From UHGV virus genome UHGV-1375844: 64,000 nt of DNA; one strand, written 5' to 3'. Numbering within the stretch: position 1 is the first letter of the stretch; every line of letters starts with the position of its first letter. The notes below the pieces were generated by a model that saw nothing but the letters and a program-made list of their open reading frames with translations, did not search any database and was not told the DNA's origin. Source of the stretch: a virus. Made by a program: the position numbers and the translations under genes. Shown here one piece after another: positions 34,815 to 36,423 of the stretch.

Positions 34815-35195
34815 ATGGCTACCAATGAAACAAAACAAGGTCGCTACGCCGCCTATATCGACTCTCTCATCACCATTTCTCCAAAAAGTCAGGCCACTAT
34901 TGCTAAGGAAATTGGGTACAAAAACCCCAATAATCTATCGCTTATCAAAAGTGGCAAAATTCCTCTGCCGGTGGACAAGGTTCGCCCGTTGGCCAACTCT
35001 TTGGATGCTGATCCAGTACGTCTCATGCTCATGGTTCTCGAAGAGCGTCACCCTGAGCTTCTTGAGTTCTTCCGTGATGAAGGCACAGCTCCGCTTTCCC
35101 AAGACGAAAAACAGGTATTGGATGCTTTTCGTAAGCGTTTCGATGGTCAACAAGGTGCTTCAGAACAGGTCGTCGAGGCCATCAAGTCAATGTGA
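34815..35195 (+). CDS. helix-turn-helix (XRE-type) DNA-binding protein
   Basis: HTH-like segment SQATIAKEIGYKNPNNLSLIKSGK; plus strand, convergent with the recombinase gene. Confidence 0.5.
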   Translation: MATNETKQGRYAAYIDSLITISPKSQATIAKEIGYKNPNNLSLIKSGKIPLPVDKVRPLANSLDADPVRLMLMVLEERHPELLEFFRDEGTAPLSQDEKQVLDAFRKRFDGQQGASEQVVEAIKSM

Positions 35196-36293
35196 GAAAT
35201 TTATACGAATAAGCTCTGTCGCTAGACGATCTCCCTTGAAATTATGGTCTATCTCGTCTAAATCTGGTTGTTCTACGATGGATGCGATGTACGCCGAAAA
35301 TTTACATAAGGCGTCTCGCATTTCATCCATATAGTCGTGACGGTCGTAAACCCGATCTATACCTTCAAGGCTATGGTTCATGATTTTACGAGAGACTTCC
35401 TGATTAATACCCAGGGCAGGGAAATAGCTACGCGCAGTTCTTCGCAGATCGCGTGGGGTGAAAACCTCAACCTCCATCAACTCCGGACGTTCCAAAATCC
35501 TCCGGAGCGCCTGTGATATGGCTACTTTAGACATTGGCATGTCCTTATCGCGTTTCTTGTTTGAGGGCACCAGCCACTGGCTGTCTTTCCCATATTTAAA
35601 CAGTTCCTCGACGCACTTCCTCATCAGCGGGCTTAACGGTAGAGCATGTTGCCTGGCCGATTTATTACGTGTGCCTTGATTCCATACATCACGTTGAAGG
35701 TTGAACTCACTCTTCTTGGCCCGGAGCACTTCATCGGGTCGCCTGGCAGCCACGAGACATAATCTGGCCGCCCACTTTGTCCCTTCGCATACGTTGAAAT
35801 AATCCCAGACGTTCCAAAAAACCCAAACTTCGGCGTCCGTTAGCTTCCGTTCCCGGGGCGTAGGTTTGGCGCCACCAGCGACTTTGTTGAGCGACATATC
35901 GTTCAACGGCGACGTTTCGATGACCCCCTGGAAGGCGCACCAGCCCAAAAACTGCTTCATCAGGGAAAACACACGCCTGCCCATGACGATCTTCCCTTCC
36001 AGAATGAGCGGGTTCACCAGCTGGTTGACGAGAACCCTACTAATGTCACTTACTTTTACATCAGAGATAAAAGGTAAAACATGTATCAAAACACAATGGA
36101 CGGCGATCTCCGGTCGGCGTCTTGTTATGAGTAAAGATAAGCGAGTGAATAACAAGAAGGCATCTGAAAACTTCATGTCGCCACTTACCAGAGAGGCTGC
36201 CATCGCATTCATTTGCGAAGCCCGTTCCAGAAACTCAATCGCTTCTCGTGAGGTGTTTTCGGCTGCGCGTGCTCGATCAAACGAATTTTTCAT
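35187..36293 (-). CDS. tyrosine recombinase / integrase family protein
   Basis: C-terminal catalytic motifs RDLRRTARSYF and NHSLEGIDRVYDRHDY (Arg-His-Tyr residues). Confidence 0.75.
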   Translation of the reverse strand: MKNSFDRARAAENTSREAIEFLERASQMNAMAASLVSGDMKFSDAFLLFTRLSLLITRRRPEIAVHCVLIHVLPFISDVKVSDISRVLVNQLVNPLILEGKIVMGRRVFSLMKQFLGWCAFQGVIETSPLNDMSLNKVAGGAKPTPRERKLTDAEVWVFWNVWDYFNVCEGTKWAARLCLVAARRPDEVLRAKKSEFNLQRDVWNQGTRNKSARQHALPLSPLMRKCVEELFKYGKDSQWLVPSNKKRDKDMPMSKVAISQALRRILERPELMEVEVFTPRDLRRTARSYFPALGINQEVSRKIMNHSLEGIDRVYDRHDYMDEMRDALCKFSAYIASIVEQPDLDEIDHNFKGDRLATELIRINFSH

Positions 36294-36319
36294 AGTCCAA
36301 TCACTTAGTTAGCCGTAAC

Positions 36320-36335
36320 ACTGTATGTATAAACA
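36320..36335. promoter_or_regulatory. LexA (SOS) box-like sequence CTGT-N8-ACAG
   Basis: aCTGTATGTATAAACAGta, 17/20 match to the E. coli consensus, ~30 bp upstream of the recombinase start. Confidence 0.45.
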
Positions 36336-36390
36336 GTATATTAGGCATTGTTTCTTATGGGATCAAGCCTAACGTTACAGTGATTTTACC

Positions 36391-36423
36391 AATGATTCCA
36401 TACTTAATAGGTATGGAATCATT
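36391..36423. repeat. perfect 13-7-13 palindrome AATGATTCCATAC-ttaatag-GTATGGAATCATT (candidate recombination core site)
   Basis: Perfect inverted repeat read directly; ~100 bp upstream of the recombinase gene. Confidence 0.5.

Follow-up and report, generated by a model that had tools for sequence, protein, structure and literature searches.

A candidate LexA-controlled self-recombination module with a loxP-like palindrome in SSU5/pHCM2/pMT1-type phage-plasmids

Introduction

What role does a tyrosine recombinase gene play on a large phage-related replicon when it lies beside a perfect palindrome and behind a sequence that resembles a LexA (SOS) box? We addressed this question for a 64,000-nucleotide stretch of the viral genome UHGV-1375844 (hereafter the window, by which the whole stretch is meant), in which the recombinase gene, named int here, lies between a convergent XRE-type gene and the palindrome (positions 34815-36423). 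A preliminary description of this DNA had placed the locus in a plasmid-like replicon and had proposed an SOS-controlled site-specific recombination system, serving either multimer resolution or conditional integration/excision. Based on the comparison of related loci, we favor the first of these two roles, and consider the locus to be probably (we would put it at about 60%) a Cre/loxP-like module that is repressed by LexA and recombines copies of itself, serving multimer resolution and not integration.

The window is 99.9% identical to the Salmonella enterica plasmid pSA20094620.2 (106,569 bp, IncFIB), while Yersinia pestis pMT1 is ~78% identical to the region. Given the set of genes surrounding int, comprising dnaE, cobS-like, cobT-like, grxA, phoH, ligase and tRNA genes, with tail and head genes further along, the replicon is a phage-plasmid of the SSU5/pHCM2/pMT1 type. 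"Plasmid-like" falls short of what it is. Previous work on this group listed a tyrosine recombinase among the persistent genes, with no further characterisation (PMC7969092), and showed that mitomycin C and ciprofloxacin induce SSU5-type elements (PMC9600943, PMC9928086). Our own literature search, which did not cover the original papers on pMT1, pHCM2 and D6, returned nothing on Int of SSU5-type elements, on the site that goes with it or on control of the gene by LexA, nor did it return the arm sequence of the palindrome in this context.

The comparison drew on 87 loci of the SSU5/pMT1 family that were collected first, 80 loci with 10-kb flanks, 62 unique upstream sequences, 100 contigs with a full site that were obtained by scanning a viral contig collection for the site pattern, and 5,426 complete Escherichia coli genomes. 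Coordinates of the features are collected in Table 1.

Table 1. Features of the int locus and its surroundings, with positions in the window.
Feature	Position	Strand	Remarks
XRE-type helix-turn-helix gene	34815-35195	+	126 aa
int, tyrosine recombinase	35187-36293	-	368 aa
Putative LexA (SOS) box CACTGTATGTATAAACAGTA	36319-36338		
Predicted int promoter	36338-36366	-	-10 TAATAT at 36338-36343; -35 TTGATC at 36361-36366
Core site AATGATTCCATAC-TTAATAG-GTATGGAATCATT	36391-36423		perfect 13-7-13 palindrome, asymmetric spacer
A/T-tract element AGAGGGCATTTTTTTGAATTTTTACC	36424-36449		loosely conserved, flanks the distal arm
Cargo slot, site to grxA terminator	36450-37385	-	one 207-aa gene (36560-37183)
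Single arm ATGATTCCATACATC in dnaE	30124-30138	+	exact 12-mer, points at the palindrome
Single arm TTGATTCCATACATC in int	35676-35690	+	one mismatch, doubtful
Single arm ATGATTCCATACATC, non-coding, upstream of the tRNA cluster	41968-41982	-	points at the palindrome
Single arm ATGATTCCATACATC, start codon of an open reading frame for a 50-aa membrane protein	42974-42988	-	points at the palindrome

A palindromic site paired with int

The perfect 13-7-13 inverted repeat that had been described about 100 bp upstream of the recombinase gene was found 98 bp upstream of its start codon. Such a repeat is not unique in the window, in which a second perfect one (AAAAGGCTCGCTA-N7-TAGCGAGCCTTTT, 19921-19953) resembles an ordinary (bidirectional) terminator, and the case for the int palindrome therefore rests on its conservation in relatives. 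Indeed, the 12-bp arms, ATGATTCCATAC and GTATGGAATCAT, showed no variation in any of the 87 first-collected loci or in the 100 pattern-matched viral contigs, compared with only ~78% identity in the DNA around them. The 7-bp spacer, on the other hand, exists in at least 17 variants among relatives. These include three exact flip pairs (CTATTAA/TTAATAG, TATATAA/TTATATA and TAATTAC/GTAATTA), so that the orientation of the site relative to int is free. Invariant arms around a varying spacer are the pattern of a protein-bound arm and of a spacer that needs only to match its partner.

The full site is present in exactly one copy in each of the 100 viral contigs, and once in the complete 106.5-kb plasmid. 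In the contigs it is adjoined by an int homolog, except for three loci whose end is too near to show the gene. The pairing extends to distant relatives, with changes that are common to both arms: in the Klebsiella type (57% Int identity) both arms read GTGATTCCATAC, and in the Xenorhabdus, Providencia, Rahnella and Pantoea types, in which Int identity is 42-53%, both read GTGACTCCAGAC / [A/G]TGACTCCAGAC (hereafter class 2). The geometry is constant across relatives of 42-100% identity, with a spacer of 7 bp and a site 77-140 bp upstream of int. Each spacer type is tied to one int lineage; the only two lineages with common distal flanks (D18 and D19), P2 and P5, also have the spacer in common, as would fit exchange across the site. 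Since the arms are invariant, the spacer is free, the arm changes are symmetric and each element carries a single copy, the comparison supports the palindrome behaving as the cognate recombination site of int.

The pair of int and site is also carried by Rahnella and Pantoea replicons without phage replication genes. On a 221-kb Rahnella contig (L178) and a 437-kb contig of Pantoea allii (L179), Int homologs of 45-48% identity accompany a class-2 palindrome with the spacer TTAATAG, and the neighbours of int are type VI secretion system, chemotaxis, TonB-receptor and H-NS genes. The module is therefore not confined to phage-plasmids but occurs on large non-phage replicons too. At a further locus (L287, 5269-5301) a class-2 palindrome is found with no intact int; of the catalytic region no more than a faint remnant can be detected, and the locus therefore looks like a decayed copy of the module. 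Next to the palindrome, a degenerate CAGAWTTnAAAAAA motif is present in most distal-flank types irrespective of the cargo, and is absent in pMT1.

A putative LexA box at the predicted int promoter

The preliminary description had also reported a sequence matching the SOS-box consensus at 17 of 20 positions about 30 bp upstream of the recombinase gene. This match holds, with the core of the box, CTGTATGTATAAACAG (CTGT-N8-ACAG, 36321-36336), located 28 bp upstream of the int start codon. The bare CTGT-N8-ACAG pattern is not rare, as its single occurrence in the 64 kb compares with 0.82 expected by chance. In the weight-matrix scoring that had been recommended at the outset, with a matrix built from 24 E. 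coli SOS boxes, the 20-mer scored 24.5 bits and so exceeded 21 of the boxes used for training; the next best 20-mer in the window reached 11.1 bits. In the alignment of the 62 unique upstream sequences, TACTGT and ACAGT were retained and the central eight nucleotides differed between lineages. Scores in relatives ranged from 19.6 to 26.0 bits, apart from one degenerate case (12.9 bits), and the box was also identified in SSU5, pMT1 and the pKpn/Klebsiella and Serratia types.

The predicted int promoter has its two hexamers at a spacing of 17 bp; both are conserved columns in the same alignment, and the LexA box begins at the last base of the -10. A promoter on the + strand that overlaps the box (36315-36342, 9/12) was rejected, its -35 not being conserved in relatives. 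Because the box is strong, its defining positions are conserved and it is placed at a predicted promoter with conserved hexamers, the comparison supports the control of int by LexA as part of the SOS response.

In one lineage (L078 and L162), the box and promoter are parted from the recombinase gene by an insertion of ~1.9 kb between the box and the int start, which begins with GTGCGCCGGGAGACC and resembles the 5' end of a group II intron. The complete plasmid contains one other strong LexA box, AACTGTATATATTTACAGTA (26.9 bits), which lies outside the window (NZ_CP030187.1 80003-80022). A hypothetical gene of 88 aa follows it closely (79721-79987, minus strand) and may be an SOS-controlled lytic-switch or antirepressor gene of the phage-plasmid.

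The recombinase and the convergent gene

The assignment of int as a tyrosine recombinase gene was corroborated by a Pfam match to PF00589 (Phage_integrase) at 39.4 bits, with a cutoff of 27.1. Int aligns to positions 137-392 only of a P4-type integrase model, corresponding to the core-binding and catalytic part, and a profile search for the arm-binding domains PF13356 and PF09003 gave no match in it. In an alignment of 18 diverse homologs, R184, K211, R284 and Y316 are invariant, R281 stands in place of the first histidine, and H307 is nearly invariant, with glutamine in 3 of the 18 members. Judged from its sequence, int encodes an intact tyrosine recombinase with core-binding and catalytic domains and without an arm-binding domain.

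In the AlphaFold2 model (pLDDT 83, pTM 0.73), the N-terminus is helical and the fold is a two-domain C-clamp whose nearest counterpart is the core-binding and catalytic part of lambda Int. Foldseek searches with this model returned residues 75-356 of lambda Int as the top match, then Tn1549 Int and Xer, all at probability 1.0, with Cre structures at rank 38 or below (E > 0.04). When solved structures in the PDB were searched with the Int sequence, no match at E <= 1 was obtained, Cre included. The homologs form a compact family of 340-380 aa within the Enterobacterales, with identities down to about 42%; the next relatives (<31% identity) are P4-type integrases, in which the arm-binding domain is present.

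The convergent XRE-type gene that had been noted on the other side of int was found as described, and its 3' end overlaps that of int by 9 nt. Its product matches PHROG 8 (transcriptional regulator, E = 7e-10); a search against solved structures returned three chance-level matches only (E 0.4-0.9). The convergent arrangement is retained in phage-plasmid relatives down to ~43% Int identity, while no XRE-type gene lies alongside the Rahnella and Pantoea copies of int.

A model for multimer resolution

The int locus occurs in 252 of the 5,426 complete E. coli genomes (about 5%), at 255 places. The preliminary description had suggested looking for the site at chromosomal junctions, and this search came out negative, as none of these 255 places was chromosomal and all were on plasmids. 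Given this distribution, a spacer that drifts between symmetric arms and a protein that lacks an arm-binding domain, integration/excision is unlikely; a spacer that is free to drift implies that it is not matched to a chromosomal attB. Of the two roles that had been offered, multimer resolution (or cyclisation) fits better, and the wider proposal of an SOS-controlled site-specific recombination system is supported by the strength and conservation of the box and by the pairing of site and int.

In the model that we favor, a dimer of Int would occupy the two identical arms of 12-13 bp, and would cut and exchange strands across the asymmetric 7-bp spacer. As each element has a single site, the productive reaction would be expected between the two copies present on a plasmid dimer; alternatively, the redundant ends of an infecting genome might be the substrate. 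The outcome would be the conversion of multimers into monomers, as Cre/loxP does for P1. The LexA box would cover the -10 and the start region of the int promoter and, because it is a strong box in such a position, int expression should be low in normal growth and raised in the SOS response. This timing would coincide with the formation of dimers by RecA-driven recombination and with the induction of the phage-plasmid.

Several points weigh against this model. As a pure resolution model, it leaves unexplained both the variability of the cargo at the distal edge of the site and the convergent single arms, which are described below. The closest sequence relatives of Int are P4-type integrases and not known resolvases, and changes common to both arms would also be produced by a conserved hairpin. 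Furthermore, the predicted int promoter agrees with the consensus in only 8 of its 12 hexamer bases and stays under the threshold of the promoter scan. Lastly, no LexA box was found in the Nissabacter type or in any class-2 relative, so that SOS control is not intrinsic to the module.

A cargo slot distal to the site

In 26 of 80 loci, no cargo separates the site from the grxA terminator and the slot measures 80 bp; in others it spans 0.8-3.2 kb. Homology to relatives ends at the distal edge of the palindrome (36423) or ~22 bp past it, and the distal flanks of the 87 loci fall into at least 18 unrelated clusters, with 25 distal types compared with 11 proximal types. In pMT1, the caf1 operon directly follows the palindrome and homology breaks exactly at the site edge; the operon therefore occupies the same slot as the single 207-aa gene of the window. 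The F1 capsule genes caf1, caf1A, caf1M and caf1R were observed distal of the palindrome in Y. pestis CO92 pMT1 (L002, 6891-11923) and in L100. Such variability could result from recombination at the site or, equally, from ordinary insertion in a tolerant intergenic region beside a site that selection preserves.

Among the alternatives to multimer resolution, the one that survives best, unlikely as we consider it, is an SOS-induced platform for cargo capture and exchange that would be analogous to an integron, in which Int would recombine the palindrome either with single arms or with sites of other replicons and thereby bring in or swap the distal genes. Integrons reportedly have this layout of a LexA-controlled tyrosine recombinase beside its site and a cargo array. 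The hypervariability of the directly distal region and the homology breaks at the very edge of the palindrome, which are found in several lineages including pMT1 with caf1, are in line with such a platform. So are one four-gamete square, which joins lineages with a common spacer, and the bracketing of the variable region by the full site and two distal single arms. However, each element carries only a single full site, no second site or scar was found at the far end of the cargo, and the other boundary of the slot is the plain grxA terminator, a usual place for moron insertion. Many lineages also retain ~25 bp of the A-rich flank, which means that the junctions are not always at the site, and the spacers of the single arms (ATC...) differ from those of the palindromes. 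Deletions that remove a distal arm are not site-specific either: we rejected a site-specific deletion between the two distal arms, as the loci that miss one of them (L118 and L130) have other deletion end-points.

Cointegrate formation at the site was considered for a locus on a 324-kb E. coli plasmid and was likewise rejected, this locus being a phage-plasmid fragment bounded by transposons and insertion sequence (IS) elements. The fragment (L279, from strain ET350) has a truncated cobT at one end and the ligase gene at the other. It carries int and the site together with a YafO toxin cargo, and is embedded between Tn3-family and IS elements.

Single arms converging on the palindrome

Allowing up to one mismatch, ATGATTCCATAC occurs six times in the complete 106.5-kb plasmid, namely as the two arms of the palindrome and as four single arms. 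All four lie within 6.6 kb of the palindrome (0.7-6.6 kb), are followed by ATC and are directed at the palindrome, while about 0.013 exact 12-mer matches would be expected by chance. Across the 80 loci with 10-kb flanks, every one of 221 single arms converged on the palindrome. These convergent arms are a new observation.

Three of the single arms are robust, namely the copy in dnaE and the two distal copies, which form islands of 100% identity. In dnaE, the arm is invariant in 34 unique sequences, wobble positions included, and the flanking codons vary; the non-coding arm at 41968-41982 is likewise fully identical in 31 unique sequences with diverged flanks. The two distal arms are ~1.0 kb apart and in direct orientation in nearly all relatives. 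In Klebsiella, the distal single arm matches the local arm variant. Protein coding is not the cause of this conservation, since the reading frames differ between dnaE and int, in which the motif is translated as C-M-E-S-L and D-V-W-N-Q, respectively. The copy inside int itself matches at only 7-10 of 12 positions in several lineages, in which it is thus not preserved; it is doubtful and probably a coding by-product. Single arms of this kind are absent from class-2 elements, and no inversions, precise deletions or GC (guanine-cytosine) skew features that would show the use of single arms were found.

Two known systems may, by analogy, serve as models for the single arms. The sfx sites of the Rci shufflon of R64 have only one conserved 12-bp arm and a 7-bp spacer, and the IRS of TnpI in Tn4430 includes extra copies of the binding motif (DR1 and DR2) as accessory sites. 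In these systems the motifs are only tens to hundreds of bp away or belong to a multi-inversion cluster, whereas the arms described here are 0.7-7 kb away from the site, and neither inversions nor precise deletions were observed. A somewhat more doubtful idea than the cargo platform is that the full site and the convergent arms 1-7 kb to either side could constitute an undescribed long-range architecture that delimits and exchanges the accessory-gene region of SSU5-type phage-plasmids by means of an SOS-induced recombinase. The spacer would then define compatibility groups, and the architecture would have been the entry route of cargo such as caf1 in pMT1.

Other readings of the palindrome

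We give less credence still to the palindrome not being a recombination site at all, but serving as a terminator, as part of a replication origin, or as an operator bound by Int, by the XRE protein or by some other regulator. The palindrome lies 25 bp upstream of the predicted -35, beside an A/T tract and in a neighborhood of replication genes, and its folding yields a hairpin with an energy of -19 to -21 kcal/mol, with which the symmetric arm changes would also agree. A hairpin does not account for the single arms, however, in which the same sequence is conserved without being able to form one. The terminator reading was rejected, as the stem is AT-rich, the T-run is set off from it by 8 nt and does not occur in pMT1, and the terminator scan was negative. 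Readings as a replication terminus, fork trap or origin were rejected as well: the GC skew is monotonic over the whole plasmid with no feature or switch at the site, and the palindrome accompanies int into replicons that have no phage replication genes. An operator of the XRE protein is at odds with the lack of any arm copy in the upstream region of the XRE gene itself, while autoregulation by Int at the site would be compatible with multimer resolution and is no rival to it.

The least probable of all the readings takes the site for an attP through which the element would conditionally integrate into, and excise from, a host chromosome. It would suit the kinship of Int with P4-type integrases and the presence of the Rahnella and Pantoea homologs on their 221-kb and 437-kb contigs among housekeeping-type genes, and pMT1 (pFra) is reported in older work to integrate into the Y. 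pestis chromosome; but the Rahnella and Pantoea copies are intact full palindromes and not hybrid attL/attR sites, no arm-type repeats lie near the site of an Int that lacks the arm-binding domain, the 255 E. coli places include no chromosomal one, and perfectly symmetric arms with a freely drifting spacer are irreconcilable with a fixed attB.

Comparison with known recombination systems

Like Cre/loxP of P1, and also Dre/rox, VCre/VloxP and Vika/vox, the module described here involves a phage-plasmid tyrosine recombinase without an arm-binding domain, whose gene lies beside a single minimal site of two ~13-bp inverted arms and a short asymmetric spacer, and whose presumed role is dimer resolution or cyclisation. 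Of the simple traits of a Cre/lox-type system, the absence of the arm-binding domain and the minimal-site geometry beside the gene are thus present, while homology to Cre is not: there is no detectable sequence similarity, and the modeled fold is nearer to lambda Int and Tn1549 Int. The module further differs from Cre/loxP in its spacer of 7 instead of 8 bp, in the LexA box at the predicted promoter, with the control that this suggests, and in the extra single arms kilobases away.

With integron IntI/attI it has in common a LexA box at the recombinase promoter (here a predicted one), a primary site just upstream of the gene and variable cargo beside the site. Membership in the integrons was nevertheless rejected, as Int matches no integron-integrase model and lacks an IntI signature, no attC-like sites or cassette array were found, and the cargo contains no repeated sites; moreover, the site is one symmetric double-stranded palindrome and the slot is bounded by an ordinary terminator. 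By sequence, the core-binding and catalytic domains of Int come closest to the P4-type (CP4-57-like) integrases. Unlike them, Int has no N-terminal Arm-DNA-bind_3 domain, is less than 31% identical, does not occur in E. coli chromosomes and is paired with a symmetric palindrome instead of an attP with arms.

XerS/difSL, XerH/difH and ResD/rfsF resemble the module in that one tyrosine recombinase is encoded beside its own dimer-resolution site, a role that is predicted in our case. Their sites are unrelated and differ in arm and spacer geometry, and the Xer modules are FtsK-dependent; to our knowledge, none of the three is LexA-controlled. A XerCD/dif-type site (11-6-11 at the terminus) was rejected on account of its different geometry and sequence, with no GC-skew switch at the palindrome. 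Taken on its sequence features, the module is Cre/loxP-like, belongs to a different branch of tyrosine recombinases, and combines a predicted integron-like LexA control with unusual distant single arms.

If confirmed, this module would define the maintenance recombination system of a large and clinically relevant family of phage-plasmids, which includes Y. pestis pMT1, Salmonella Typhi pHCM2 and elements in ~5% of complete E. coli genomes, and would link plasmid monomerisation to the SOS response. For genome engineering, it would represent a new recombinase/target family in which nature provides arms of two specificities (ATGATTCCATAC and GTGACTCCAGAC) as well as many 7-bp spacers, and such new pairs could be orthogonal to Cre, Dre and Vika. 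The cargo slot and the convergent arms offer a lead on how these elements gain virulence and accessory genes.

Additional observations in the window

An Rfam scan of the window detected tRNAs and no other known RNA family. The tRNA cluster (41276-41814, minus strand) contains tRNA-Ser and tRNA-Asn, and a 130-nt Rfam tRNA match within it (41608-41737), for which ARAGORN made no call, may represent a tRNA of interrupted or unusual structure. The cobT-like gene has at its start a perfect 12-9-12 palindrome, CTGTACGAACAG-N9-CTGTTCGTACAG (34279-34311), whose arms each consist of CTGT-N4-ACAG and which is not a LexA box. The gene itself (31901-34279) encodes a 792-aa vWA protein, in the middle part of which the residues D, E, G and S abound in a very long stretch of acidic, low-complexity sequence.

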